This document shows, in pieces, positions 3,034 to 39,557 of a stretch of DNA of 64,000 nucleotides. Both the position numbers and the translations under genes were made by a program. The DNA is from an uncultured Alphaproteobacteria bacterium. GTDB lineage: Bacteria > Pseudomonadota > Alphaproteobacteria > Rs-D84. Under the pieces are notes generated by a model, which was given only the letters and a program-made list of their open reading frames with translations, was not told where the DNA came from and ran no database searches. How positions within the stretch are numbered: position 1 is the stretch's first letter; every line of letters begins with the position of its first letter. The DNA is taken from positions 31,708 through 95,707 of the forward strand of contig CAJOHU010000001.1 in the NCBI GenBank assembly GCA_905234465.1, in the 5' to 3' direction.

Positions 3034-3136
3034 GAGCGAATACGCAGATGAACAATTAGAAAAATCAAAAAAATCGCAGGAACGAGATTTTTGCAGATTT
3101 TTATTATTGTGTATTGAGGAAATGTCGCCCCGATCA
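3034..3136 (+). repeat. 103-bp direct repeat, copy 2 (exactly 1200 bp from copy 1). It ends in a variant 14-mer tgtcgccccgaTca (att-like).
   Basis: Direct sequence comparison with 1834-1936. Confidence 0.9.
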
Positions 3137-3167: not shown

Positions 3168-4847
3168 TTAATCTTTCTTAAAAGCGTTTTTAATTTTTTG
3201 TATTGCATCGGTGTTTATGGCGGTGTTACCAATTACGCCGACGGCGGTACCACCAATTGCGACACCTGTACCAATTTTTTTGTTTTGCTCAGATTCTTGT
3301 TTTTGTTCTGCCCATGCGATTGCGTCTTCGCTGGTGCTGTACATTAATGCACGTGATACAGATACATTATCGCTGCTTTGGCGTTCCGCAGGGTTATATG
3401 AATATAAATCATAATCGGCGCGGTCATAAATTGTTTCAGATTCAATGCCGGGTTTTAACCCCAATGCCGCTTTGGTTTTTTTCAATTCGCCCGCCATATT
3501 TTTATATTCTTTGGCATATTCTGATATTTCATCGCCACCCGGCAAATAAATGGTTTCGGTGCCAACATTAAATACTTGGCCGTCACCATATTCGCATTTC
3601 ATTGTGTCAATCCATTCCCGCATATCAGATTCAGCTTTGGCATCTGCCGACTGTTCTGCCATCGCGGTTGCGACCATTCGCGCACCATACCCCGTTGCCG
3701 CAGATGCCCCAGCATTAACCAAGCGATTACCCAAAGAATTTTGTTTTTCGCGCGCATCGGCAAGTTTCTGTTGCGCGTCGGTAAGTTTTTGTTGTGCCGC
3801 GTCGATATCTGCTGCTGTGGGTTGTGGTTGTACAACAGGTTCTGGGGTCGTTTCTTTTTGTGTCGCCTCTTCTCTTTCTTTCTGTGTGGCATTGCTGTCA
3901 CTGTGGATATATTCGGATTTTGATTCCTGGCTTGCTTTTTGACTGACCATTAAGATCTGACTTTCGTCTGTTTGTCCCCATACCGGCATGTTTTCTATGT
4001 TGTCGCATATATTCTGGTTCAAATAAATATAGGTCGTGTTTCCCACGGTTTCATTGTTGTGCGCGCAGGTTTGTACCTCTTCATAACAAAAACTTTCTAT
4101 CGCGTCGGAACCAATTGCCTTATTACGATATAAGAAACCCAGAATATGCGTTTTGTCTGTGTTCATAATTTGTTTAGTTTTTGATGCATCGTTGAATGGA
4201 CGGCTGTCCCCAGGAACACCCGTTAATGATCCGCGACACCATTCAATGTCACTTATATCAAGTGCGGTCCATGTGCCCTCTTTTGTGGTTTGATCAACCT
4301 GGCATCTGTAGAGTCTGTTATCAATACCCAATACATAGGTGCCAGTGCCACAATCTTTATCGCTGGAAAAACCGCCGCAATAAAGCCATTTATGATCCGG
4401 ATTTTCAAGTACACCGGTTTTTGAGGAATATGTATCTTGTGGTATGCAATTAAGATTATCTATCTCATAGGTAATGTTAACAGAAGTATCTTTGTCGCAC
4501 CAAGCAACCATGTGCGTTGGAAAATTGTCACTAAAATTAGTAAAAGGATAATGTATTGTCATATCACATGTGTCATCATTCTCCAATATTCCTATCTGTC
4601 TTTGCCGCTGTGCTTGGGTACATGTATCAAGCAAATTATGATCTATCAAATATACTTGACCCCTTGCGGGTCTTGCTACCTTGGTCAGTTGTGTACAGTT
4701 GGTTATTTTTTCTGATACATCATTGGTAAACCAGCAAAAAGGACTGTCTTTGCTTTCGCAATGCATTGAAAATTGCGACTGTACTGAGTCAGCAAAAACG
4801 GGCACCGACAATAATATTAAATAGGCGGCAAATAAAAACTTTCTCAT
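3168..4847 (-). CDS. secreted/tail-anchored hypothetical protein. It has a signal peptide, a Cys-rich N-terminal region, a central coiled-coil (QQKLTDAQQKLADAREKQ) and a C-terminal hydrophobic Gly-rich segment.
   Basis: 559-aa ORF. N-terminus MRKFLFAAYLILLSVPVFA. More than 14 Cys in the first 300 aa. C-terminus IGTGVAIGGTAVGVIGNTAI. No recognisable catalytic motif. Confidence 0.65.
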   Translation of the reverse strand: MRKFLFAAYLILLSVPVFADSVQSQFSMHCESKDSPFCWFTNDVSEKITNCTQLTKVARPARGQVYLIDHNLLDTCTQAQRQRQIGILENDDTCDMTIHYPFTNFSDNFPTHMVAWCDKDTSVNITYEIDNLNCIPQDTYSSKTGVLENPDHKWLYCGGFSSDKDCGTGTYVLGIDNRLYRCQVDQTTKEGTWTALDISDIEWCRGSLTGVPGDSRPFNDASKTKQIMNTDKTHILGFLYRNKAIGSDAIESFCYEEVQTCAHNNETVGNTTYIYLNQNICDNIENMPVWGQTDESQILMVSQKASQESKSEYIHSDSNATQKEREEATQKETTPEPVVQPQPTAADIDAAQQKLTDAQQKLADAREKQNSLGNRLVNAGASAATGYGARMVATAMAEQSADAKAESDMREWIDTMKCEYGDGQVFNVGTETIYLPGGDEISEYAKEYKNMAGELKKTKAALGLKPGIESETIYDRADYDLYSYNPAERQSSDNVSVSRALMYSTSEDAIAWAEQKQESEQNKKIGTGVAIGGTAVGVIGNTAINTDAIQKIKNAFKKD

Positions 4848-4938
4848 CTCTCTAATCTAAAACCCTTTGCCCTATTCTATCAAATTTCAATTTTTGATAC
4901 AAGAGAAAAATTGGGCGAGTGGTTATCCGCCTTCGCCG

Positions 4939-4958
4939 CTAACCACTATCACTAACAC
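4939..4958 (-). repeat. copy of the dispersed 'GTGTTAGTG(A/G)TAGTGGTTAG' repeat family (reverse orientation)
   Basis: ctaaccactatcactaacac is the reverse complement of the motif seen at 13437, 37060 and 39424. Confidence 0.7.
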
Positions 4959-4964
4959 CGATTC

Positions 4965-6674
4965 CTACATCTCGTTTGGGACCTTTAACCCCATTAAATC
5001 TAGTGTCTTGGTTAATACATCAACCGCAATCTTTACCAGCCCCAATCGCGCATTGCGAATTTCCGCCGGTACATCTTCGCGTAATATCGGACAATTATGA
5101 TAGAATGTGTTCACCATTTGGCATAAATCGTATGCATAGTTTGCAACCAAATCAGTCGCGCGTTCGTTAAATGCCGACTGAATCGTCCGGTCAAAATCTA
5201 ACAGTTCCATAATCAGATTACGTTCGTCTGAACACATTTCCGTGATAGCCGTCGCCGAAAAATCGCCCGCACGCCGCAAAACAGAATTTAATCGCACTGC
5301 TGTATATAATATATATGGACCGGTGCGACCTTCAAATGATGTGATTTGCGCCGGGTCAAATATATAATCCGATTTTACATCGTGCAACAAATCATTAAAC
5401 TTTACCGCCGCCAACGCAATCGTTTGTATTGTGTCATCGTCTAATTTTTTATCAAATTCTTGCACCCGCGCCCGCACAGCATCATTCGCAATGTCAAATA
5501 TGTCGTCCAATCCCGCCGCATTGCCATCACGCGTCTTAAACGGTTTGCCGTCCGCGCCATTTATCGTGCCGTACCCAATGTGTTCAAATTTATCATACGG
5601 GTATATGCCCGACATGTCCGCCACACGGAACAGTTGTTCAAAATGCAGGCTTTGACGCAAATCTGTGAAATAAATAATCTTGTCTGGGTTATCGGTTTTT
5701 TTGCGACAATAAACAGCCGCCAAATCAGTGGAATCATAAGTGTCCGCCCCGCGAGAATCGCGCCACATGTACGGTGGCATGGGCTTGTTATCTGTGTCGC
5801 GTTTAACATTGATTATCTCTGCCCCATCATTTTCATAAATCATATTCTTTTCACGTAAGATTTTTTCCACAGAACCAAGATATTTTGCCGCGTTCCTTTC
5901 GCCTAAATCATAGTCAAATGGTAATATGTTTAACCGGCTTACCGTTTTGTTCATGGTGCGTAAAGATATTGCCAAAAACTTTTCATACAGTGCGAAATAC
6001 CCCGGGTGACCCGATTGAAACTTTGCCTTGATTTCTTGGGCGTGTGATTGGAATTCTGGGTTTTCTTTGGCAAACGCAGATGCCGCCGGATAATAAGTAT
6101 TTAATTCTTGTTCGTCTATTTCAAAATCAACAGGTGTATTCGGATTAAAATCATCCCGAAAATACGGTAATTCTGGGTGCAGGCGTTCAATCCACGCAAT
6201 AACCAATCCCATGGGCTTTCCCCAATCGCCAATATGGTTCCACGAAAATGTCTTGTGCCCCAAAGATTTCGCAATACGATTAAAAGTATCCCCAACAATA
6301 GATGTTCGCAAATGACCGATGTGTAAAGATTTTGCAACATTGTATGCGCCATAGTCCATGTCAATGATTATCGGTTTTTCCGCCGGTGTAATTTGTGCGG
6401 CGGTTTGTGCCGCATGCCACAAAAAATCATCTTTGATTGTCAAATTAATAAACCCAGGTCCCGCAACAGATGCAGATTTTACAAAATCCAGTTCATGAAT
6501 TTTTGGCAATATCTCGCCCGCCAATTCTCGTGGATTTTTGCCCGCAGATTTCGCCATCACCATCGCGGCATTCGTAGAAAAATCCCCGAATTCACGGTTG
6601 CGCGGTGTTTCCAATTTTGCGGCAAACCCAAGTTTTTCGTTTATTTTCTCAGACACATATTTGTATAGGTTCAT
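4965..6674 (-). CDS. argS: arginine--tRNA ligase
   Basis: 569 aa. Class I motifs: HIGH-like SLHIGHLRTS and KMSKS-like region. Full-length similarity to the ArgS architecture, including the N-terminal Arg_tRNA_synt_N and the C-terminal DALR anticodon-binding region. Confidence 0.9.
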   Translation of the reverse strand: MNLYKYVSEKINEKLGFAAKLETPRNREFGDFSTNAAMVMAKSAGKNPRELAGEILPKIHELDFVKSASVAGPGFINLTIKDDFLWHAAQTAAQITPAEKPIIIDMDYGAYNVAKSLHIGHLRTSIVGDTFNRIAKSLGHKTFSWNHIGDWGKPMGLVIAWIERLHPELPYFRDDFNPNTPVDFEIDEQELNTYYPAASAFAKENPEFQSHAQEIKAKFQSGHPGYFALYEKFLAISLRTMNKTVSRLNILPFDYDLGERNAAKYLGSVEKILREKNMIYENDGAEIINVKRDTDNKPMPPYMWRDSRGADTYDSTDLAAVYCRKKTDNPDKIIYFTDLRQSLHFEQLFRVADMSGIYPYDKFEHIGYGTINGADGKPFKTRDGNAAGLDDIFDIANDAVRARVQEFDKKLDDDTIQTIALAAVKFNDLLHDVKSDYIFDPAQITSFEGRTGPYILYTAVRLNSVLRRAGDFSATAITEMCSDERNLIMELLDFDRTIQSAFNERATDLVANYAYDLCQMVNTFYHNCPILREDVPAEIRNARLGLVKIAVDVLTKTLDLMGLKVPNEM

Positions 6675-10445: not shown

Positions 10446-11435
10446 ATGGAAAGTACAAACAGATTTCTTGATCCGAATATCCCAGACGAAATGGCGGCAA
10501 CGATTCGCCCGAAAACTTTATCAGATTTTATCGGACATGATGGATTGAAACAGAATTTATCTGTGTTTATATCTGGGGCGCGGTCGCGTGGCGAACCGAT
10601 GGATCATGTTTTGCTGTATGGACCGCCGGGATTGGGCAAGACGACATTGGCGCACATTATTGCAAATGAATTGGGCGCAAATTTTCGGGCAACATCTGCG
10701 CCTATGTTGACCAAGCAAGGCGATTTGGCGGCGATATTGACTGCATTGGAACCGATGGATGTTCTGTTCATAGATGAAATTCATCGTTTGCCAACCGCCA
10801 TAGAAGAAGTGTTGTATTCTGCAATGGAAGATTTTAAGTTAGATATAATGTTGGGCGAAGGTCCGTCGGCAAAAAGTGTGCGAATTGATTTGCCGCCATT
10901 TACATTGGTTGGGGCGACTACTCGTACCGGTTTGTTGTCTAATCCTTTGCGGGACAGATTCGGAATTGATTTAAGGCTTAGTTTTTATCCACCCGAAGAT
11001 TTGGCAAAAATAATACGGCGCAGTGCGGGAATCATTGGTACGGAAATTGATGCGGGGGGCGCGGTGGCGTTGGCAAAAAGTTCGCGTGGAACCCCGCGTA
11101 TCGCGAATCGTTTGTTGAAGCGTGCGCGTGATTTTGCCGCGGCAATGGGTACCGGTATAATCACGCCTGATGTGATAAAGACCACATTGGCACAGTTGCA
11201 TATTGATGAATGTGGTCTTGACCAAATTGATCGCGAATATCTGAATGCGATAATCATGCATTATGCGGGTGGACCGGTTGGAATTGATAATTTGGCGGCG
11301 GCACTATCTGAACCGGCAGATACAATAGAAGATGTAATAGAACCGTATTTGATGCAACTGGGGCTTATTCAGCGAACCCCCCGTGGGCGAATTGTGACGG
11401 ATGCGGGGTATCGCCATGTGGGGTTGGAGAAGTAA
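10446..11435 (+). CDS. ruvB: Holliday junction branch migration ATPase RuvB
   Basis: Walker [14 protein letters not shown] (Walker B/sensor). C-terminal winged helix. Conserved throughout with the RuvB family. Confidence 0.95.
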
Positions 11436-12682: not shown

Positions 12683-13435
12683 ATGGCAAAGATAGACCAT
12701 TTCTTTTCAGAAAATATTGGAATTTCCGTTTTGGGACATTTGGTATTGTTGGCGGCGGTGGTGCTGTTGGCGGATGTCGTTTTTGTTGGGTTTAACCGGT
12801 TTGTCGCGCCCGACAGGATTCAGATTACAATGATAGATTTGGATAATGTGCGTGTGTCTGGGGATGAAACGGTGCTTTATAATACAAATACAGACAATAA
12901 CAAAAAAGACGATTTGAAAAAGCCGGATAACAAGAAAATACAGGAACAAAATGCCGCGCCGAAACAGAGTGAAGAAATGAAATCTACCACCCTTGTCCCG
13001 GATACAGAAAAAAAACAAGATAAAAATAAAAAGAGTGACAGTCCGGCACCCGATGAAACAGTTGCCCCGAAAACCAGTACGATTGTGCGGGTGAATCGGA
13101 ATGTTGTATCGTTGGACAGGACGCTTACTGTATCGGTGGTTGATGCGTTGCGTGTGGCGATGACGCGTTGTTGGACGATTGATACGGCGCATCCTGGAAT
13201 TGATGGAATTCGGGCGGTTGCGCATTTGACAATGCGGCAAAATGGAACGGTATCTGATGTTTGGTTTGAATCGGCGACGCGTGCGGAAACCGATGCGGCG
13301 TTTGCCTATGTTTTGGAAACGGTTCGTTCCGCGATAAATGTGTGCCAGCCTTTACGTATGTTGCCGATTGCGGAATATGACAAATGGAAAAAGATTCAGT
13401 TAACATTTTATCCCACCACCGGCGCAGTAATGTGA
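12683..13435 (+). CDS. tolA: TolA-like protein (N-terminal TM anchor, Lys/Glu/Asp-rich linker, C-terminal TolA/TonB-type domain)
   Basis: Anchor ISVLGHLVLLAAVVLLADVVFV. A charged linker of about 90 aa. The position after tolR is conserved. No tolB/pal follows, which is unusual. Confidence 0.55.
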   Translation: MAKIDHFFSENIGISVLGHLVLLAAVVLLADVVFVGFNRFVAPDRIQITMIDLDNVRVSGDETVLYNTNTDNNKKDDLKKPDNKKIQEQNAAPKQSEEMKSTTLVPDTEKKQDKNKKSDSPAPDETVAPKTSTIVRVNRNVVSLDRTLTVSVVDALRVAMTRCWTIDTAHPGIDGIRAVAHLTMRQNGTVSDVWFESATRAETDAAFAYVLETVRSAINVCQPLRMLPIAEYDKWKKIQLTFYPTTGAVM

Positions 13436-13436
13436 G

Positions 13437-13812
13437 AGAGTGGTTAGTGGATAGTGTTAGTGGTTAGTAAAACGGTGGCGTTCGCCACCGTTTTACGTCA
13501 CACCGCCTAAGGGCGGTGCCCAGTCTGAGCGTAGCGAAGACCTGCTCCGCAGGAGATTTTTCATCGCGGTGCGATGAAAATCTTTGGTGTCTGCGACGCA
13601 AGTTCACAGCGTTGCTGTGAACTGGGTCCCGGCCTTCGCCGGGATGACTGGTGTCTGGAATATTAGCCCCTAACCACTAACACTAGCCACTATCACAGCC
13701 CCTATCCCCCCGGCGGTTCCGCCGTACCCCTTCCCACAGGTAAGGGGAATTAAAAACGGTTGCCTTTTGCAACCGTTTACTAACCACTTACACTAACCAC
13801 TAATTACTAATT
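13437..13812. repeat. MITE-like composite element (about 375 bp). Its terminal inverted repeats are built from GTTAGTGG units (13437-13469 and 13780-13812), with an internal copy at 13667-13696. It encloses at least 6 stable hairpins.
   Basis: Left end: gtggttagtggatagtgttagtggttagtaaaac. Right end: the reverse complement ctaaccacttacactaaccactaattac. Internal hairpins include aaaacggtggcgttcgccaccgtttt, caccgcctaagggcggtg, gattttcatcgcggtgcgatgaaaatc, gttcacagcgttgctgtgaac, cccggccttcgccggg and aaacggttgccttttgcaaccgttt. Confidence 0.45.
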
Positions 13813-14294
13813 TTGCCGTGGCAGTTGGAATATAAGCCGGATTCTGTTCCGCCCAAATCCCGTGTCGTTCCGGCGCGTGCGACACCAAACATTGGGTGGC
13901 AAGCATAATTAATCTGCAAATGGCGTTGCCGCCAAGTGTCAAGCCCTTTACCCGTTTCCGATTCGGAACAAATCATTGGAAACCTATTTAAGGTTGCTGC
14001 GCACAGAGATTGCCCGTTTCACTCAAACACGCGTGGTGTTTGCTTCGTCACTGTTGCTCTAATCGTCAGATTGCTCTGCCCGGTAATTAGCCGGTGTGCT
14101 GTTCCGGTGCAGTCCGGACTTTCCTCCGCCATGGTGATGACGGCTATGCTTTTTCCAACTGCCGCGGGACAGGTTAGAATAAGGTGGCAATAAAATCAAC
14201 AAAATTTTTATATAAATTTTTTATATTTTTGTCTTGCACGGGTGTGGATAAATTGCTAACGTTTTTATCAAAGGGGAAGGAAGAAAACAGAAAA

Positions 14295-17200
14295 ATGTCC
14301 ATATTTCGCAGGTTTTTTGGCGTTTTAACAATCGCATTTTGTTGCGTGTTTGCCGTACATTCCGCATGGGCAAATTTTTACATCACCACAACAACCACAG
14401 GCTATTATCAACATGCTCCTACTGTATGCATAAAAGCCAAGGGTTCGTTTTTTGTTGATTGGGGTGACGGGGGAACTGATTCCTGTCATAATTCAATAGT
14501 AAAAAGTTGCTGTAAAACTCATACTTATTCAGATAATAGCATATCCCACACTGTAGAGATAAGTGGGCAACCAACAGAGTATGCTGACTATACCAATGCC
14601 ACTTTTGATGCTCAGCCAACAATAGCATTTTGCAATTGGGGCAATCCTTATCTTTTCCATTGTGCGGCGCCCTGGGTGGCGGGCATATCTGGGTCTATTG
14701 GTGAAATTTTTCCGACACTTGGTAATGGAAATAACCCAGGGCAACAACCATCGTTTAGCCATACATTTGGCAGTATGCCCAATTTAACCGGCACTATACC
14801 CGCTAATTTATTTAATGGGGTTCATGGAACGCCTGTGCGGTGGATGTTTAGCAATTTGTTTTTTGCCGATACGGGTTTGACCGGCAGTATACCGTCAAAT
14901 TTATTCAGTGGTATTACGGGTACGGCTGTCGGGGCATTTGCACATGCGTTTGGGAGAACCACCCATTTGAATTGCCATGTCCCGGCGGGTTTGTTTCATA
15001 ATATAGTGGGCAATGTTCCTCAGAGTATGTTTTATGAGACTTTTGCGGGTAGTCCGGAAAATGGACCGGATGATGGTTTTTGTACAGAAAGTGGCACATA
15101 TGGTTGGATAGCGCCCGATGCGTTTTCTATATCTCGCTTGTATGGCACGCCTTTTTCTAATTATCAAATGTATCGGATGTTTTATAAGTCTGGTCTGGCA
15201 CAAAGTTGTCCAAGTGGTTATACCCAATGGGTGACGGGGTTTGAAGACGATTGGGATGGTCGCAAGGCGTGTGTCCCGTCAAGTATGACACTTACGACCA
15301 ACTGCGGGGAAGGAACCGGTAACGGCACAAGTATGAATGTTTCATATAATGATAATGTAATTGTGGGATCCCCTTCGTCTTGGGGTTGTACTGCACCGGC
15401 GGGCGAAACATTCAGTCATTGGGCGGTGTCAAACAGTACAGACACATATAACGCAGGTCAGCAGTTTAATTGGCACTATGTACAAAACAAGGTGTTTACA
15501 GCCGTATGGGAAGGACATTATTATAATTTCGCGTTAAATCATAAAGACGGATCAAACAATGTGAATACGGTTTATGAAAAATACAATACCGGTTGGGCGA
15601 CCAGTGCAAATGCGTCTTCATGGAATTGGAATATGATTCTTCCACAAGATACTGTGCGCGATGGATACACTTTGCGTGGTTATTATGATTATGATTTTGG
15701 GGATGTAAGCAGCAATGATACTGTAAGTGAAACAGAAGCGTATTATCATATGAAAATTAAGTATGATAGTAGCAGCAGTGGGTGGAAACTGCCTGCGCCA
15801 ACTCAGGCGCCGGGTGCCACATGGTATGCGGCATGGGCGCGTAATTGTGCACCGGTTGCGCCCGCAACATGCAGTTTACAAATTGCTCCGCACACTGGTT
15901 CTGTGACGTACGTCACCACGTGTCCGGAAGGATATAATAAAGTCAATGGTACTTCATACAACCCGAGTTGTACGCCGGTGGGTGTGACAATTACTTTAAA
16001 TAATAATGATGCCACATCGGCGGGAACGACCAGTTTGACAACAGCGTACGGTGTCGGGGTTTATCTTGATGGTACTTTGATGACCACAAGTGGTCCTTCA
16101 ATTACCAAACCGCAAAAGCAATTTACCGTCACTTATTATGCCCAGGGCGGAACGATGACCGGTGGCAATTCAAGTATCACGCAAACCGCAACATCCACAT
16201 TTGATGGGTATTATTATGCCGAGAACAATAATGCACCTGTCCAGGTCATTGATGATGATGGATATATAACAACCAATGGTGATACGATTGGTAAAGAGTA
16301 TACCACCAATGCAACATGGACGGCGCAATGGTCGGGGGGGGCGGTCACTTTGCCGAATGCCCAACGTCCGGGGTGGACGCTGGTGGGGTGGAAAACATCG
16401 GGAAATTGTGGTGGGTCATTGGCAGGTACCCCGGGGCAGCACTATACCCCGGATGGAAATATAATGTTGTACGCATGTTGGACAAATGTGCCATATTATA
16501 TAATCACATTGGCCGATGGGTCTTATAATGATATTATACAAAACGGCATGATTACCGGGACAAATGGTGGCTGTACCAGGGCCGGGTTGCAATATGGTCA
16601 AGGTTGGCTGAATATATGCGATGCCCCATTGCGTGGTGCGCTGTCGCTAAGCCAGATTCCAAAACGACCAAACCATGTGTTTAATGGATACTGGGCGGAA
16701 TTGGCGGGTGGCGCGTCGGGCGTAGATAGCCAGGTCGTTACCAAAGACGGCGAATTTTGGGAAACAAGCGAGGTTTTAAATGGATTTGTGTCCGATTCAA
16801 CGATTACCGCATATTGGCAACCAAAATATCTTATAACGCTTAATCCCAATGGCGGCAGTGGTGGTGACACATCTATATATGAAGGATATGGGGTTGGTTG
16901 GTCAAAAACACAAAATGGTGATTATACTGATACTATAACAGTTACTAAACCACAAAGAACGGGCTATACATTTAGTGGATATTATGATGATCCGAATTTT
17001 GGTATAAAATACATTCCTCGCAGTGGTGTGGTATCATTAAGTCCTGCAACATTTTCAACACCAAAGACACTGTATGCACATTGGTCCCCGCGGAGATATA
17101 CCATCACATTAAATGATAATGGTGGCAGTGGCGGTCAGGTCGGTGACGCGTCGTCACACTGTACCACAGCCGACTTGGTGTACGGTACCCGTTGGGAAAA

Positions 17201-20200
17201 TGGATGCGATTCGGGCGGTGCTGTATATGACCGCGGTGCCAGTGGCAGTGGCGAGGGTGACAAAACAGAAACGGGCGAATCGGGTGAAGGCGGGTCTGGC
17301 GAAAAAGCCGCATCAAGTTCTTCAAATACCGGGTCCAGCAGTTTAAGTTTGTATCCTCCTCTGCCTACAAGAGATGGTTATATTTTCAATGGGTATTGGA
17401 ATACGTCCGCATCTTCTGGTGGAACCATGATTGTTACTCCACAGGGGGCTTTCCGCGAGGTAGATGCTGCCTTGACCTTTACATCCCAGGATGCGACTAT
17501 ATATGCGCGTTGGGAATCGGGAACACCAAGTAATACGATATATACGATAACATTAGACCCCAATAACAATGGGGCGGATGGAAATCGTCCACCAAAGATA
17601 TACCAAAAGGGAACTTCTTTCTGGGCGGATTCAAGCGCAACTGACTACCCGATTACTGGTTCTGTATTTGACCCGATTGCCGACGGTGGTGCGGGTATAA
17701 CTCGCCCAACCCCACCAAGCGGTAAAGCGTTCAGTGGATACTGGGATGACAGAATGACGGAACGGTTTACCGATGCAGATGGAAATATAGTGGCAACTGC
17801 TTATTTCACAGGCGCTGCAACGGTTAATGCCCACTGGGGGGATGCCGCCACGACAACGGTTACATTGGATGCGAATAATGGTACCCCATGTGCAACAAGA
17901 ACGGTGACCGCCACCCAGGGGCACGATATGCCGACATTGACGTGTGGTCCAACACCGCCCCCCGGGTATGACTTTACCGGGTATTATAAGACAGAATATG
18001 GGGGGTGGCAGTATTATGATGAACAACCGGCGTCGGTGCATGTTTGGGATCAAACAACATCAACCGCAACAATTTATGCAGGATATGAGCCGGCGGTTCG
18101 TGATGTGTCGTATCTGTGCAACAGCGGTGGGATTGGTTCGGCTAATATGGTGGATCAGGCGACGTATGGTTCCGAATATACTATCAAAGATTTTAGTACT
18201 GTTGGGTGCAACGCAATCATCGGTAAAAAGTTCATAGGGTGGACTATATCAGGATCCAATACTTTCGTGGAACCGGGCAAATCATACCAAAATTGGCCAT
18301 ACTATACCGATTTAACTCTGGTCGCCAAATATTTGGACATATACACTGTGACTTTGCGGCACCCCGATGCGACAAATAGCCCTATGCCGCGTGTCGCATA
18401 TGTTATACCATACACATCTGATTCAGCTGGGTATGAAGGTTGGTATTCAGAGTCAACCGCCGATACACCTCTTGTGGCCATGATTACGGCACCGCAACGT
18501 CCGCTGTATGATTTTACCGGGTATTTCTATTTGCCAGATGGTGATACACAATCCGACGAGATACAGATTGTGCGCGAAAACGGGTATTTTTTTGATAATC
18601 AAGAAACATTAGAGTTAATTACATCAGATGGAGTTGCAGACGCAGCTTGGAAGCCTGTATCGCCAGAATTGACTATCACGACTACATCGTTACCGGCAAA
18701 TACAACATTCAGATTCTATATCGGTGCCACGGGTGAATTTGTTATAACGTGGGGCGATGGACAGACACAAACCGTTTCTTCACCGGGTATCGTTTCGCAC
18801 ACCTATTCCAGTGCAGGTGCGCGTACCATCGATATTGTCGGAGATGCTACAAGTTATACAGATGCGTACACAACAGGAACTATATATAATACCGGCCGAG
18901 TGGCAGAATCTAGCCAGTGGTCAAACAATGCTGTGCGCCCGATCCAAATTAATTTCCCGGCGGCGATACGGTTTGGATGTGAAGCCGAGGATACATCGTG
19001 TGCCCTAACCCCACAATTAATTAGTGCTGTGCATGGATCTTTGGGTGATGTGTTTCCGACGCTTGGTACCGGAAACACGCAACAGCCGCGGTTTAGTCGG
19101 ACGTTCGCAGGCTGTACTAACTTGACCAATGTTCCTGAAGATTTGTTTGGAGGTGTGTATGGTGCGGCAATACCCGGAATGTTCTATGGTACATTTGAAG
19201 ATTCTGGGTTGGTATCTGTTGGACAGAATTTGTTCAGCGGTATAACATCGTTCGCACCGCACGCATTCCAAAGAACATTTATGGGATCTGATTTGTCTAC
19301 TGTGCCGGCGGGGTTGTTTAGTCATATTTCTGGCGCCCCAGCCGAGGCCATGTTTGCGTATACTTTTGCGAACACACCGTTGCGCAGCATACCAAGTGGT
19401 ATATTTAGTGGTGTCGTTGGTGCACCGGCGGTCGATATGTTCTGGGGAACATTTAGTGGGGTTCCTTTTGTATATGGAAATACTTTGCCGGCGTTGTTTA
19501 GTGGTATATCAGGTGCGCCCGCCAAAGGTATGTTTGATTCAACGTTTTATAATAGTTATAACCTAACTGGCACGATACCGGCTAATTTATTCGGCGGCAC
19601 CAATTTGTCGGGTGTGCCGGCAGAACGCATGTTCGCAAGTACATTCTATGGTTGTTATAATTTAAGTGGTTCTATCCCGGCAAATCTGTTCGGTGGCATG
19701 GGATTAACCGGTGCATCGGCGGTTGGAATGTTTGATACAACATTCTTTGCGTGTATCGGTCTAAGTGGTTATGTTCCAATGACACTGTTTGGTGGAATAT
19801 CTACATCTAATCCAGCAGCTGATATGATGAATCATGTGTTTCAGCATTCTGGGTTATTGCCAGTTTGTCCATGCGGAACACATGATTATACCACCGGTTT
19901 TGAATCTTATTGGGATGGCAAGGTTTCTTGCGAAGTCGGGTTAAAACCAAACGAACATTGGTACGGCGATATATGTGTAGAAGATTGTGCGGCGGGTATA
20001 ACGCAAATAAGAACAAGTACAGGGCTGTCTTTCCAAATATTAAAGACAAAACCAACAGAACATGCAATTCATATTAGTGCCCCTAGTGATGGTACGGTTT
20101 GCTATGTGCCATTGGAATCTGGGCTTGGAGGCACGGACAGTATGAATGTTGCATATAGTGGTACAACATATCATCTTGGAATTGTTTCTGATACTGCGCC

Positions 20201-20231
20201 TGCTAACTGGGATCCGTTGGCGTCATCATAA
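14295..20231 (+). CDS. giant secreted repeat protein (1979 aa). It has a signal peptide and N- and C-terminal blocks of about 30-aa LRR-like (BspA/DUF285-type) tandem repeats. Between them are at least 8 Listeria-Bacteroides-type repeat domains. There is also a Gly/Ser/Glu-rich acidic linker.
   Basis: The ORF-track frame begins at 14184, but the probable start is the ATG at 14295 (MSIFRRFFGVLTIAFCCVFAVHSAWA, with a GGAAGGAAG RBS). The LRR-like repeat consensus is MFxxTFxGCxNLTGSIPANLFGGxxGxPA, with about 4 copies N-terminal and about 9 C-terminal. The Listeria-Bacteroides repeats read YxITLNPNGGSGG...RTGYTFSGYYDD...TLYAHW. The duplicated module is FYITTTTTGYY..FFVDWGDGGTD / FRFYIGATGEFVITWGDGQTQ. 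Confidence 0.85.
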   Translation: MSIFRRFFGVLTIAFCCVFAVHSAWANFYITTTTTGYYQHAPTVCIKAKGSFFVDWGDGGTDSCHNSIVKSCCKTHTYSDNSISHTVEISGQPTEYADYTNATFDAQPTIAFCNWGNPYLFHCAAPWVAGISGSIGEIFPTLGNGNNPGQQPSFSHTFGSMPNLTGTIPANLFNGVHGTPVRWMFSNLFFADTGLTGSIPSNLFSGITGTAVGAFAHAFGRTTHLNCHVPAGLFHNIVGNVPQSMFYETFAGSPENGPDDGFCTESGTYGWIAPDAFSISRLYGTPFSNYQMYRMFYKSGLAQSCPSGYTQWVTGFEDDWDGRKACVPSSMTLTTNCGEGTGNGTSMNVSYNDNVIVGSPSSWGCTAPAGETFSHWAVSNSTDTYNAGQQFNWHYVQNKVFTAVWEGHYYNFALNHKDGSNNVNTVYEKYNTGWATSANASSWNWNMILPQDTVRDGYTLRGYYDYDFGDVSSNDTVSETEAYYHMKIKYDSSSSGWKLPAPTQAPGATWYAAWARNCAPVAPATCSLQIAPHTGSVTYVTTCPEGYNKVNGTSYNPSCTPVGVTITLNNNDATSAGTTSLTTAYGVGVYLDGTLMTTSGPSITKPQKQFTVTYYAQGGTMTGGNSSITQTATSTFDGYYYAENNNAPVQVIDDDGYITTNGDTIGKEYTTNATWTAQWSGGAVTLPNAQRPGWTLVGWKTSGNCGGSLAGTPGQHYTPDGNIMLYACWTNVPYYIITLADGSYNDIIQNGMITGTNGGCTRAGLQYGQGWLNICDAPLRGALSLSQIPKRPNHVFNGYWAELAGGASGVDSQVVTKDGEFWETSEVLNGFVSDSTITAYWQPKYLITLNPNGGSGGDTSIYEGYGVGWSKTQNGDYTDTITVTKPQRTGYTFSGYYDDPNFGIKYIPRSGVVSLSPATFSTPKTLYAHWSPRRYTITLNDNGGSGGQVGDASSHCTTADLVYGTRWENGCDSGGAVYDRGASGSGEGDKTETGESGEGGSGEKAASSSSNTGSSSLSLYPPLPTRDGYIFNGYWNTSASSGGTMIVTPQGAFREVDAALTFTSQDATIYARWESGTPSNTIYTITLDPNNNGADGNRPPKIYQKGTSFWADSSATDYPITGSVFDPIADGGAGITRPTPPSGKAFSGYWDDRMTERFTDADGNIVATAYFTGAATVNAHWGDAATTTVTLDANNGTPCATRTVTATQGHDMPTLTCGPTPPPGYDFTGYYKTEYGGWQYYDEQPASVHVWDQTTSTATIYAGYEPAVRDVSYLCNSGGIGSANMVDQATYGSEYTIKDFSTVGCNAIIGKKFIGWTISGSNTFVEPGKSYQNWPYYTDLTLVAKYLDIYTVTLRHPDATNSPMPRVAYVIPYTSDSAGYEGWYSESTADTPLVAMITAPQRPLYDFTGYFYLPDGDTQSDEIQIVRENGYFFDNQETLELITSDGVADAAWKPVSPELTITTTSLPANTTFRFYIGATGEFVITWGDGQTQTVSSPGIVSHTYSSAGARTIDIVGDATSYTDAYTTGTIYNTGRVAESSQWSNNAVRPIQINFPAAIRFGCEAEDTSCALTPQLISAVHGSLGDVFPTLGTGNTQQPRFSRTFAGCTNLTNVPEDLFGGVYGAAIPGMFYGTFEDSGLVSVGQNLFSGITSFAPHAFQRTFMGSDLSTVPAGLFSHISGAPAEAMFAYTFANTPLRSIPSGIFSGVVGAPAVDMFWGTFSGVPFVYGNTLPALFSGISGAPAKGMFDSTFYNSYNLTGTIPANLFGGTNLSGVPAERMFASTFYGCYNLSGSIPANLFGGMGLTGASAVGMFDTTFFACIGLSGYVPMTLFGGISTSNPAADMMNHVFQHSGLLPVCPCGTHDYTTGFESYWDGKVSCEVGLKPNEHWYGDICVEDCAAGITQIRTSTGLSFQILKTKPTEHAIHISAPSDGTVCYVPLESGLGGTDSMNVAYSGTTYHLGIVSDTAPANWDPLASS

Positions 20232-35472: not shown

Positions 35473-35595
35473 ATTTCCCCTTGGTAAAAGGATGTAGTTC
35501 CTAGTGTTTGTTATACAATCTTTCTTTTTGTTTTGCAATCAAAAAAGCGTTATGATATGCTTAATAGCAATAAAAATACTCAAAGGGGAAAAGAT

Positions 35596-37068
35596 ATGAA
35601 AAAGCCTGTGGTTTTGTGTGTGCTGGATGGTGTAGGTGTTAACGAGGCGCGTTCGCATAATGCGGTTGCGTTGGCAAAAATGCCGTTCTTTCGCGGTTTG
35701 ATTAAGAAATATCCAAATTCTTTGTTGCGGGCATCGGGAACTGCGGTTGGGTTGCCTGGGAATTTGATGGGAAATTCAGAAGTTGGGCATATTTGTATTG
35801 GTGCCGGTCGGGTCGTTATGCAATATTTGTTGCGATTTGCACGCGAAAATTGGGCGAAGAATAAGCCGTTAAACAAATTCATTTCCGATGTACGACATGA
35901 TGGCGGAATCGTGCATTTTGCAGGGTTGATGTCCGATGGGCGTGTTCATTCTGATGTGCGCGACGAAATGAAAATTGTTAAATATATATTAGATTCTGGA
36001 TTACAGGTTTGTATCCATTTTATCGCCGATGGTCGTGACACACCGCCACGTTCCGCTTTAAAATATGTTCGTATGATAAAACGGATATTGGCACCATATT
36101 TTGCCGATGGGCGCGTGTTTTTTGGAACTCTTTCGGGGCGGTATTATACTATGGACAGAAACAAGAATATGGACAGAACAAAAATGGCGTTTGATGCGAT
36201 TGCCCAGGCAGAATCTAAGTTTTCTGCGCCAAACATTGAAGATGCAATCAAAGAATCTTATGCAAATGATATAACAGATGAATTCTTTAAGCCCACAATT
36301 ATAAATGCCACACCAATTACAAAGCACGATGGTTTTATGTTCGGAAATTATCGCAGTGACCGCGCCCGTCAAATTGTTCGTGAAATGTTAAAGACTGGTG
36401 CCCATATTTTGTGCTTTTCGCAATATGGTGAAGGCTTGAATGAAAAGTGTCCTGCACTGCTGAATGATATTCCGGTGGAAAACACATTGGGCGATGTTGT
36501 GGAGGCGGCGGGGCTGCGTCAGTTACGTATCGCTGAAACAGAAAAGTATAATCATGTGACATACTTTATGGATGCGGAACGCACCATAGATTTTAACGAG
36601 GAAGAAAAAGTGCTGATAGATTCGCCGGATGTTGCAACATTTGACATGAAGCCAGAAATGTCTGCGCCCGAAATCACACGGGCATTATTGCCGCGATTAG
36701 GGAAATTTGATGTGGTAATGATGAATTTTGCAAATGGCGATATGGTTGGACACACCGGAAATGAAGCCGCGACAATTCGTGCAATGGAGTGTTTGGACAA
36801 TCAATTAAAACAAATTGTGCCAGCGGTTTTACAACTTGGTGGTAAAATGCTGATTATTGCCGACCATGGCAATGCAGAAAAAATGTGGGACGATAAAGCG
36901 AACGCCCCATGGACCGCACATACTAATAATAAAGTCCGGGCGATTTTAGTGTCTGAACCAAAGTACCCAAAAATTAAAAACGGTGGATTGGCAGACGTAG
37001 CACCAACGATTTTGAAATTACTTGGCGTGCCACATCCAAAAGAAATGACAGGAAAGTCATTAGTGTAA
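35596..37068 (+). CDS. gpmI: 2,3-bisphosphoglycerate-independent phosphoglycerate mutase
   Basis: The ATG at 35596 has RBS aaagggga. The iPGM motifs are present: VLCVLDGVG, GNSEVGH, DGRD and, at the C-terminus, ADHGNAE. Confidence 0.9.
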   Translation: MKKPVVLCVLDGVGVNEARSHNAVALAKMPFFRGLIKKYPNSLLRASGTAVGLPGNLMGNSEVGHICIGAGRVVMQYLLRFARENWAKNKPLNKFISDVRHDGGIVHFAGLMSDGRVHSDVRDEMKIVKYILDSGLQVCIHFIADGRDTPPRSALKYVRMIKRILAPYFADGRVFFGTLSGRYYTMDRNKNMDRTKMAFDAIAQAESKFSAPNIEDAIKESYANDITDEFFKPTIINATPITKHDGFMFGNYRSDRARQIVREMLKTGAHILCFSQYGEGLNEKCPALLNDIPVENTLGDVVEAAGLRQLRIAETEKYNHVTYFMDAERTIDFNEEEKVLIDSPDVATFDMKPEMSAPEITRALLPRLGKFDVVMMNFANGDMVGHTGNEAATIRAMECLDNQLKQIVPAVLQLGGKMLIIADHGNAEKMWDDKANAPWTAHTNNKVRAILVSEPKYPKIKNGGLADVAPTILKLLGVPHPKEMTGKSLV

Positions 37069-37098
37069 GTGTTAGTGGTTAGTGTTAGTGGTTAGTAA
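37060..37098 (+). repeat. tandem copy of the GTTAGTGG repeat family. It overlaps the gpmI stop.
   Basis: ttagtgtaagtgttagtggttagtgttagtggttagtaaaaa. Confidence 0.7.
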
Positions 37099-37130
37099 AA
37101 ATCCCGCGACATGCGGGATTTTTGCTTTTA
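37097..37130. terminator. bidirectional terminator hairpin
   Basis: aaaaatcccgc-gacat-gcgggattttt. Confidence 0.6.
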
Positions 37131-39423: not shown

Positions 39424-39458
39424 TGTTAGTAAAACGGTGGCGGTTGCGCCGCCGTTTC
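39424..39458 (+). repeat. partial GTTAGT repeat fused to a member of the AACGGTGGCG...CGCCGCCGTT terminator-palindrome family
   Basis: gttagtaaaacggtggcggttgcgccgccgttt. Compare 13466-13496 and 46718-46747. Confidence 0.55.
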
Positions 39459-39557
39459 TTTTTAATTGGTATTATTTTTATTCCTATGGTCTTGAAATCG
39501 GTTTTGGGATAACTATATCTGTGTCATACAAGATTGATATACTAAGGAGTAATAAAA

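Follow-up and report, generated by a model that had tools for sequence, protein, structure and literature searches.

What kind of DNA fills the gap between two convergent genes in the genome of an uncultured gut alphaproteobacterium, and what does its build say of its origin? The DNA in question is a 376-nt spacer at 13437-13812 of the window (the whole stretch of DNA that was analyzed, 64 kb in length), and on one side it has the stop codon of a tolQ-tolR-'tolA' operon, on the other the 3' end of the RNase P RNA gene (rnpB). A preliminary description, made from the sequence alone, had taken the spacer for one MITE-like unit (miniature inverted-repeat transposable element). Its inverted ends and small size fit that view, but the spacer is a mosaic, pieced together from two terminators and no fewer than four independent repeat modules, and not a single MITE. 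We favor, with moderate confidence, the reading that 13436-13694 derives from a cassette that carries a small GIY-YIG gene in relatives, that it is MITE-like and lacks the gene, and that it sits beside "array + terminator" units ending the two convergent genes. The preliminary description had noticed neither the adjoining rnpB nor the NTS/SRM-type hairpins, and it made no connection with GIY-YIG cassettes.

Anatomy of the spacer

Read from tolA toward rnpB, the spacer consists of a tandem array, a hairpin (H1), a 160-nt module (M2), half of a core hairpin, an inverted array, a further module (M3), a second hairpin (H9) and another inverted array. The left array (GAGAGTG GTTAGTG GATAGTG TTAGTG GTTAGTA; 13436-13469, plus strand), which like the right one was recognized by repeat search and motif counts, begins 1 nt past the stop codon of the open reading frame (ORF) in the tolA position and contains stop codons in all six frames. 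H1 (GTAAAACGGTGGCG-TT-CGCCACCGTTTTAC; 13467-13496), with its 14-bp perfect stem, A-tract and T-tract, is a putative bidirectional intrinsic terminator of the tol operon. The join between array and hairpin recurs as well: 18 identical bases (GTTAGTAAAACGGTGGCG), comprising the array end and the left arm of H1, are found at 13462-13479 and at 39425-39442.

Two hairpins in opposite orientation bracket M2 (13496-13655). The left bracket, CGTCAC-ACCGCC-TAAG-GGCGGT-GCCCAG (13496-13523, plus strand), is similar to the NTS/SRM hairpins discussed below, and the right bracket, AGTCATCCCGGCGAAGGCCGGGACCCAG (13622-13649, minus strand), is an NTS/SRM hairpin that reads AGTCAT-CCCGGC-GAAG-GCCGGG-ACCCAG on its own strand. 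Between them, the interior of the module (13524-13621, plus strand) forms three small hairpins at 13541-13553, 13558-13580 and 13601-13623. The half core hairpin that comes next (TCTGGAATA; 13654-13662) is half of a 34-nt core, CTGGAAT...ATTCCAG, which lies between arrays in the short palindromic members of the family and is also found beside SRM hairpins. It is followed by the internal array (GTGATAGTG GCTAGTG TTAGTG GTTAGG; 13665-13696, minus strand, found by repeat search), in which 13669-13694 is 96% complementary to 13445-13467 of the left array (23-nt arms), confirming the internal copy of the end motif that had been described.

M3 (13705-13752, plus strand) is made of two GC-rich hairpins, CCGGCGG-TTC-CGCCG and CCCCTT...AAGGGG, and is 91% identical to L053:4215-4260. 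(Loci numbered with an L are sequences of relatives that we compared with the window; the clade DNA sampled amounts to about 0.9 Mb, of which 865 kb entered the SRM scans.) Next to it, H9 (AAACGGTTGC-CTTTT-GCAACCGTTT; 13753-13778, minus strand) forms a perfect hairpin having A- and T-tracts, is followed by TTTTT on the minus strand, and would serve as the terminator of rnpB; its stem (AACGGTTGC/GCAACCGTT) also follows arrays in L018, L019, L021, L057, L069 and L080. A simple consensus terminator scan listed neither H1 nor H9, because part of the T-run is paired in each. The right array (AATTAGT AATTAGTG GTTAGTG TAAGTG GTTAGTA; 13779-13812, minus strand) begins 5 nt past the 3' end of rnpB. Together with their adjoining hairpins the two outer arrays form inverted 56-nt arms (13439-13494 and 13753-13808) that are 75% complementary, so that the inverted ends claimed earlier are real, and inverted arrays bound units of 259 nt and 376 nt.

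The 13-mer GTTAGTGGTTAGT, counted with at most two mismatches in the 64 kb and in 100 shuffles, had 10 matches against 0.78 expected, a number that none of the 100 shuffles reached, and there were four arrays of at least three units against 0.085 in shuffles. Of perfect stem-loops with 8 bp or more the window has approximately 14, and four of them sit within the 376 nt, in keeping with the hairpin-packed interior that had been noted.

What recurs elsewhere is the modules. M2 is 83% identical to L042:6994-7160 and to L024:7785-7945, which lie in other genomic contexts, and in an alignment of the three copies 12 of the 56 predicted pairs are preserved by changes on both sides, with one hairpin having a wholly different stem in each copy. 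M3 has seven copies at E<0.01 across the sequences compared, the window included, and modules occur in differing orders from locus to locus. The full 376-nt composite was found only once in the window and the 0.9 Mb of relatives, so it does not recur as a whole in the manner of a MITE.

Small GIY-YIG genes in the same frame of repeats

The brackets of M2 have a precedent in the hairpin of the Neisseria Transformation Sequence (NTS; CGTCATTCCCGCGMAVGCGGGAATCYRG) and the wider set of "Ssn-related motifs" (SRM), which are targets of the Ssn GIY-YIG single-strand nucleases (PMC11893778). SRM hairpins flank the small single-domain GIY-YIG genes (ssn) in a hairpin-gene-hairpin layout that was likened to an insertion sequence, and the positions that matter for binding and cleavage are the GTCA(Y) 5' flank and a C just past the palindrome (PMC11893778). 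Both window hairpins have this build: GTCAY, palindrome, C. The published search pattern, HGTCWYN(0-2)YYVSBRHN(0-5)WNVSBRGN(0-2)RNCYNB (PMC11893778), had one match in the 64-kb window against 0.09 expected, and that match is the right bracket of M2 (13622-13649, minus strand), inside the element; the left bracket is one position short of the strict pattern. Across the clade loci, with dinucleotide shuffles for comparison, the strict pattern matched 17 times in 865 kb against 0-2 times in shuffles, and sites with GTCAY plus a hairpin numbered 34 against 3-10. The latter are typically preceded by TTCCAGA-N5, and this heptamer before SRM-type sites is the end of the 34-nt core.

Relatives carry small GIY-YIG genes between hairpins of this kind. 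The single-domain GIY-YIG ORFs of the clade match Pfam PF01541 at 1e-14, and the protein has 2081 homologues at E<=1e-5, many of them on very short contigs. Tyr10, Tyr21 and Glu68 of the L066 protein have the same spacing as Y6, Y17 and E64 of SsnA, residues that were mutated in the study of that enzyme (PMC11893778). NCBIfam and PDB sequence searches with the clade proteins were uninformative; judged by size, domain, residue spacing and flanking hairpins, these proteins look Ssn-like.

The surroundings of these genes follow the order seen in the window. SRM-like hairpins and AGTG-type arrays flank the GIY-YIG genes of L066, L118, L119, L120 and L124-127, and the order in these relatives is array, core, SRM hairpin, gene, SRM hairpin, (core), and array or terminator. 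L124-127 and L066 have a GTTAGTG array, then TCTGGAAT...ATTCCAGA, the hairpin GTCATTCCTGCGCAGGCAGGAAT, the gene, the inverted hairpin, a half core and a terminator. In other genera of the clade the units differ: the L118 cassette has CAGAGTG heptamer arrays on both sides (1090-1165 and 1540-1640) and the L119 cassette AGTGATAG octamer arrays (1030-1150 and 1590-1690); each cassette has a single unit type on its two sides, suggesting that the array unit co-evolves with the cassette. The cassettes of L124 and L127 align for 585 nt at 89% identity, and the similarity sets in exactly at the array; the flanks are unrelated. One site, upstream of rplU, occurs with the gene cassette (L124-126), with gene-less M2 (L042) and with array and terminator only (L053).

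In the window, 13436-13694 runs from the left array and H1 through M2, with its two inverted brackets and three small hairpins, to the half core and the internal array, after which come M3 and H9 with its array. Because the same module order frames a small GIY-YIG gene in relatives, we read 13436-13694 as a derivative of the cassette that has no gene.

Other arrangements were also seen. In L116, a relative with 67% TolA identity, a GIY-YIG gene with two SRM-like hairpins lies on the 5' side of rnpB, with no adjacent array seen. At 510-570 of L127 one SRM hairpin appears to be interrupted by a second copy that has an extra GAGCGTAGC-containing stem (gtcattcctgcgcatGTCATTCCTGGCGAGAGCGTAGCCCGAGGG...), which looks like hairpin modules nested in each other. 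L023, from the same Candidatus Enterousia metagenome-assembled genome (MAG) as L002, has an 81-aa GIY-YIG ORF adjoining a tRNA gene (3906-4172, minus strand; Pfam 1.3e-14); its Tyr-Tyr spacing is 12 instead of 11, an adjacent SRM hairpin was not seen, and the ORF probably represents a different GIY-YIG subfamily.

Position, polymorphism and competing explanations

How far does the family extend? One genome per species was scanned with the array 18-mer GTGWWAGTGGTTAGTARA. More than 104 stretches matched, 80 of which were listed, and 61 of these 80 are in at least 24 Alphaproteobacteria MAG species, Candidatus Enterousia and its relatives, from human gut, rumen and rabbit; RUG14636 alone has 15 array loci among the matches listed. 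The family is therefore clade-wide, and the earlier suggestion that it was species-specific does not hold. The other 19 listed matches are single ones in unrelated phyla, and the 12 of them that were tallied have no array or only a short three-unit match. A scan of viral contigs with the same 18-mer returned five single matches and no arrays; an array family on known phage contigs was rejected, the five being attributed to chance. In the literature searched, the motif string turned up only in unrelated primer sequences.

The arrays share a grammar. Among 150 distinct arrays the number of AGTG cores is 3-8 (mode 5), the last unit is AGTA in 99, and in 266 of 343 transitions a spacing of 6 nt alternates with one of 7 nt, for a super-period of 13 nt. 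Because the period is 13, three to four units or more place TAG in every frame of one strand and TAA in every frame of the other. AAAA or AAAC follows the array in 46 of the 150, and where contexts were read the A-tract leads into a terminator hairpin.

Position follows rules as well. Just upstream of 110 of the 150 arrays is a co-directional ORF, the median distance being 4 nt. Of 158 arrays, just 5 share more than 12 nt with an ORF, and in 37 the first TAG of the array is the stop codon of the gene. The intergenic dispersal reported earlier is thus upheld. Neighboring arrays that face each other are less than 400 nt apart in 53 of 58 cases, against none of 32 for arrays that face apart. Three contexts recur: stop codon, array and terminator (A); a palindrome of about 110 nt, in which the 34-nt core separates an array from an inverted array, with about 27 distinct copies (B); and two arrays on either side of a GC hairpin beginning CCGTCAC (C). 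The frequent fusion to terminators that had been described is borne out by the array and terminator contexts. Composites of 200-400 nt like that of the window were found in several genomes, and arrays also stand in 5' regions (L055, L056 and L101). The idea of a DNA-uptake sequence was set aside, arrays being excluded from genes and occurring about once per 10 kb.

The window holds three further members, at the places named in the preliminary description (4938-4958, 37060-37098 and 39424-39435), although the last is a single unit only. A six-unit array (37058-37098, plus strand) provides the TAA stop of ORF 35533-37068, confirmed by Pfam as iPGM/gpmI, and is followed by the terminator AAAAATCCCGC-GACAT-GCGGGATTTTT, the whole spanning 37058-37123. 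At 4936-4960 (minus strand, from motif matches) a short array directly past the argS stop precedes a remnant hairpin, and at 39424-39466 (plus strand, from a motif match) the single unit and a AAAACGGTGGCGG...CCGCCGTTT terminator come after the L25 gene.

Such rules invite an account with no mobile DNA in it, in which arrays and hairpins are mainly a conserved gene-end signal: the array would be an all-frame stop block or spacer before the terminator, or a binding site for a 3'-end factor, and its variation would stem from slippage and intergenic drift. That arrays lie nearly only directly past genes, supply 37 stop codons, close all six frames and lead into A-rich sequence fits this account. 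It also accommodates an array after the non-coding rnpB and the 3' end of gpmI, where the orthologous sites in L060 and L070 keep array and terminator with fewer units, only the unit number differing. We nevertheless consider it unlikely. Inverted pairs of arrays enclose the 34-nt core, which is not a terminator; arrays are present in 5' regions; the same arrays frame the GIY-YIG cassette in unrelated contexts; L003 does with one terminator and no array at the tolA-rnpB site; and, as set out next, whole modules are gained or lost between strains that are 97-98% identical.

Among relatives the tolA-rnpB spacer exists in five states. In L003 it is 28 nt long, with one bidirectional terminator and no array, yet L110, the one locus that a metagenome scan with a tolA 3'-end pattern returned, is 97% identical to L003 across 2.5 kb of flank and carries type C plus type B modules. 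The spacers of L002, L039 and L112 are of type B, the short palindromic form; in L111, which is 93% identical to the window, an array is followed by a different module; and the window has the composite. The contig L001, which matches the window at 97.9% identity over 8.5 kb, breaks off inside the left array. At a second site, past a gene that ends in ...IEW*, genomes 89-96% identical show four states with the common right boundary CAC|TAAAAAC. In the argS 3' spacer the window has the short array and remnant hairpin (4850-4965), and its counterpart in L001 (2090-2282) is one half of an M2-type unit, SRM hairpin included. Presence or absence is therefore polymorphic at orthologous spacers, as the preliminary description had proposed to check, and conservation at orthologous positions, which it had named as a possible refutation, gave a split answer: the gpmI array is kept in L060 and L070, and the tolA-rnpB and argS spacers vary.

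Contigs of the clade often end inside arrays or beside GIY-YIG cassettes (the L001 end at 10754-10794, the L111 and L114 ends and many others), and in practice the repeats seem to be one reason why assemblies of clade MAGs break.

Could the gains and losses be those of a classical non-autonomous transposon? The GTTAGTG arrays would then be terminal inverted repeats recognized by an enzyme, either in a MITE of the IS630/Tc1-type DDE class with TA duplication or in a REPIN moved by a RAYT (Y1) transposase. Inward-pointing inverted arrays do bound units of 100-400 nt, in many copies per genome, and in four of five comparisons the filled site reads TA-insert-TA and the empty site a single TA. In many short copies, moreover, GTAG directly precedes the core palindrome, and GTAG before the palindrome is a feature of REPs (repetitive extragenic palindromes). 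The TA flanks, however, do not discriminate, because TA belongs to the repeat unit (TTAGTG / CACTAA), and the fifth junction (L110) is TG...TA. In the approximately 0.9 Mb of sampled clade DNA no ORF large enough for a transposase is enclosed by a pair of arrays; a distance above 800 nt separates the arrays of only two convergent pairs, and the pair in L075 encloses ordinary genes. A six-frame scan for the Y1 motif found none in the clade loci or the window, its one match being in an unrelated Bacilli contig, and the genomes are usually smaller than 1 Mb (PMC12306168). A classical transposon of this sort seems improbable to us.

Far less likely is a structured non-coding RNA (ncRNA), whether a small RNA or a cis-acting element of the 3' untranslated region, which had been offered as an option. 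The minimum-free-energy fold of the spacer is very stable (-182.5 kcal/mol, z = -12.9 on the plus strand), and in it the outer arrays pair with each other and close off about nine hairpins; hairpins are also preserved by compensatory changes among copies. But the minus strand folds equally well (z = -10.6), the pairs are almost all Watson-Crick, as in DNA palindromes, the modules recombine freely in different orders, and the whole stretch is absent from the orthologous spacer of relatives. Rfam 15 at its gathering threshold, which found rnpB and two tRNAs in the same search, had no match in 13437-13812; below threshold, with E up to 10, the best score was about 21 bits against cut-offs of 39-61. 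A tRNA/tmRNA scan had no match in the spacer region, and no promoter-like site beyond chance was seen.

Chance resemblance or an assembly artefact is scarcely credible: the break of the same-species contig L001 inside the left array does show that assemblers struggle here, but the enrichment is far above shuffles, independent assemblies from many studies share the same modules, and the repeats are shorter than sequencing reads.

The preferred account, a gene-less derivative of a GIY-YIG cassette, can be given a mechanism by analogy with SsnA and with RAYT/REP systems. In single-stranded DNA the palindromes would fold, and an Ssn-type nuclease encoded in trans would bind the folded SRM hairpins and nick alongside them. 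Repair and recombination between the ubiquitous arrays could then insert, swap or delete modules, and this shuffling would be why orthologous spacers differ between near-identical strains. Selection would leave only those insertions that do no harm to genes, and insertions right at a stop codon may be tolerated because arrays bring stops in all frames and terminators of their own. Arrays at stop codons would in turn act as gene-end punctuation and are probably useful. Since arrays are kept at orthologous positions after gpmI (L060 and L070), mobility is not the whole story.

Several observations weigh against this account. There is no GIY-YIG gene within the 64-kb window, and the partner nuclease in this genome is a putative one. 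The hairpins beside the GIY-YIG genes that we fetched end in ATAGGG or ACAGGG, whereas those of the window, like canonical SRM, end in CCCAG; the two may thus belong to different nuclease-hairpin pairs. Membership of the clade proteins in the Ssn family (cd10448) is suggested indirectly, by size, domain, residue spacing and flanking hairpins. The density of strict SRM sites is low, at about 17 per 865 kb, compared with more than 200 copies per genome in strongly associated genomes (PMC11893778). SsnA is a nuclease that modulates transformation and is not described as a transposase (PMC11893778); the enzyme of the gene-carrying counterpart is not known to transpose DNA, and there is no known insertion mechanism. 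The five comparisons of filled and empty sites revealed no clear target-site duplication, and the stability of gpmI arrays at orthologous positions across species fits a conserved function equally.

A bolder proposal, which we advance tentatively and would sooner doubt than assume, is that array, core, SRM hairpin, GIY-YIG gene, SRM hairpin and array together make up an unrecognized autonomous element driven by an Ssn-type nuclease. The window element and the palindromes of about 110 nt would be its gene-less, MITE-like derivatives; they would insert precisely at stop codons, bring stops and terminators of their own, and in this way spread in symbiont genomes of very small size.

Genomic setting and known systems

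The operon to the left of the spacer has the order ruvB, thioesterase, tolQ/exbB, tolR/exbD and, last, the tolA-position ORF (250 aa; 12683-13435, plus strand; TGA stop at 13433-13435), the last identified from the ORF list and from synteny in relatives. Pfam recognizes MotA_ExbB and ExbD in the two ORFs upstream of it and has no match at E<=0.001 for the tolA-position ORF itself. The exact protein of the latter is not on record. Its homologues come from uncultured gut Alphaproteobacteria, and the closest named genome, at 77% identity, is a Candidatus Enterousia MAG; of 841 homologues nearly all are from such bacteria, the majority of them unnamed. The order of Enterousia, Rs-D84, is uncultured, and most of its genomes are smaller than 1 Mb (PMC12306168). 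To the right, rnpB (13817-14162, minus strand) is a full-length bacterial class A RNase P RNA gene (Rfam RF00010, 188 bits).

Just beyond rnpB lies a giant ORF of 2015 aa (14184-20231, plus strand). It has counterparts of 2760 aa in L002 and 6333 aa in L003, and contig-cut products of 2396-2874 aa in L004 and L005; the proteins contain Flg_new repeats (a weak Pfam match), and in L116 the GIY-YIG cassette occupies the locus of the giant ORF. Its place beside a repeat mosaic resembles that of the variable surface proteins flanked by NIME arrays in Neisseria.

Near the start of the window, an AT-rich insertion of about 1 kb (1947-2900) adjoins tRNA-Pro (1616-1692) and lies between two direct copies of a repeat of about 45 nt (gatttttattattgtgtattgaggaaatgtcgccccga...; flanks at 1895-1935 and 3088-3135), with a 19-bp perfect hairpin at its edge (2902-2944). 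The same-species contig L001 (97.9% identical) is without it and has a much shorter stretch between the repeats. The insertion resembles a gene cassette specific to the strain or a small islet that has become integrated.

What appears to be new in the clade is the use of AGTG-type arrays as outer inverted boundaries, their exact abutment on stop codons, the portable terminators and the coexistence of gene-carrying and gene-less forms in genomes usually below 1 Mb. Hairpin mosaics of the NIME/dRS3 kind have been known for more than 20 years, and the Ssn partner enzyme was described only in 2025 (PMC11893778). The present clade unites gene-carrying and gene-less versions, insertions and deletions between near-identical strains and a simple position rule of stop codon and terminator. 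In genomes of usually less than 1 Mb, where repeats are normally purged, the mobility of Ssn/SRM units and their effects on neighboring genes can be tested directly. The arrays also alter predicted protein C-termini and break assemblies, which matters for the annotation of these MAGs.

The known systems that come closest are the NTS/SRM-Ssn pairs and the NIMEs; REP/BIME-RAYT, REPINs and Correia elements are more distant. Palindromic, MITE-like units, about 100-150 bp long, also make up the Correia elements of Neisseria (CREE) and the RUP/BOX elements of pneumococci, which have long inverted ends, occur in many copies near genes, affect transcripts and have TA at their junctions. Correia and RUP elements have a TA duplication. 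No sequence similarity to them was seen, none being looked for, and they differ from the units described here, whose ends are tandem arrays of variable unit number and abut stop codons rather than promoters.

REP/BIME-RAYT systems and REPIN doublets offer extragenic palindromes at gene 3' ends, mosaics, and inverted doublets that form long hairpins. For REP systems, as for Ssn, a single trans-acting enzyme that recognizes single-stranded hairpins has been proposed (discussion in PMC11893778). In our case no Y1 transposase was detected in the sampled DNA, the ends are tandem heptamers and not a single REP, and the candidate enzyme is a GIY-YIG nuclease.

Neisserial intergenic mosaic elements (NIMEs), made of RS units of 50-150 bp flanked by inverted dRS3 (ATTCCCN8GGGAAT), were said in 2007 not to occur outside Neisseria (PMC1797815), and the spacer mosaic is therefore an analogue and not a member. 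Phylum and sequences differ, the window hairpins having no ATTCCC...GGGAAT and the host being an alphaproteobacterium, and heptamer arrays and terminators are extra here. The likeness is in the design: intergenic mosaics of variable units bracketed by inverted short hairpin repeats, many unit families, arrays that vary between strains, and adjacency to genes for variable surface proteins, with the 2015-aa ORF beyond rnpB (2760-6333 aa in relatives) in the corresponding place here.

With the NTS/SRM-Ssn system the contrasts are the AGTG-type arrays as outer inverted boundaries, the 34-nt core hairpin and the portable terminators, the text of the published account using none of the words tandem, direct repeat, heptamer or MITE (PMC11893778). 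The strict SRM copy number is low here, the hairpins beside the clade GIY-YIG genes have the 3' tail ATAGGG, and this uncultured host is a small-genome gut symbiont. The function in Neisseria is set in natural transformation. Shared by both are GTCAY, a GC-rich palindrome and C, in hairpins that are oriented, clustered and outside genes; one window hairpin fits the published SRM pattern exactly, and the small GIY-YIG genes of relatives, with inverted hairpins on both sides, repeat the "NTS-ssnA-NTS" layout.

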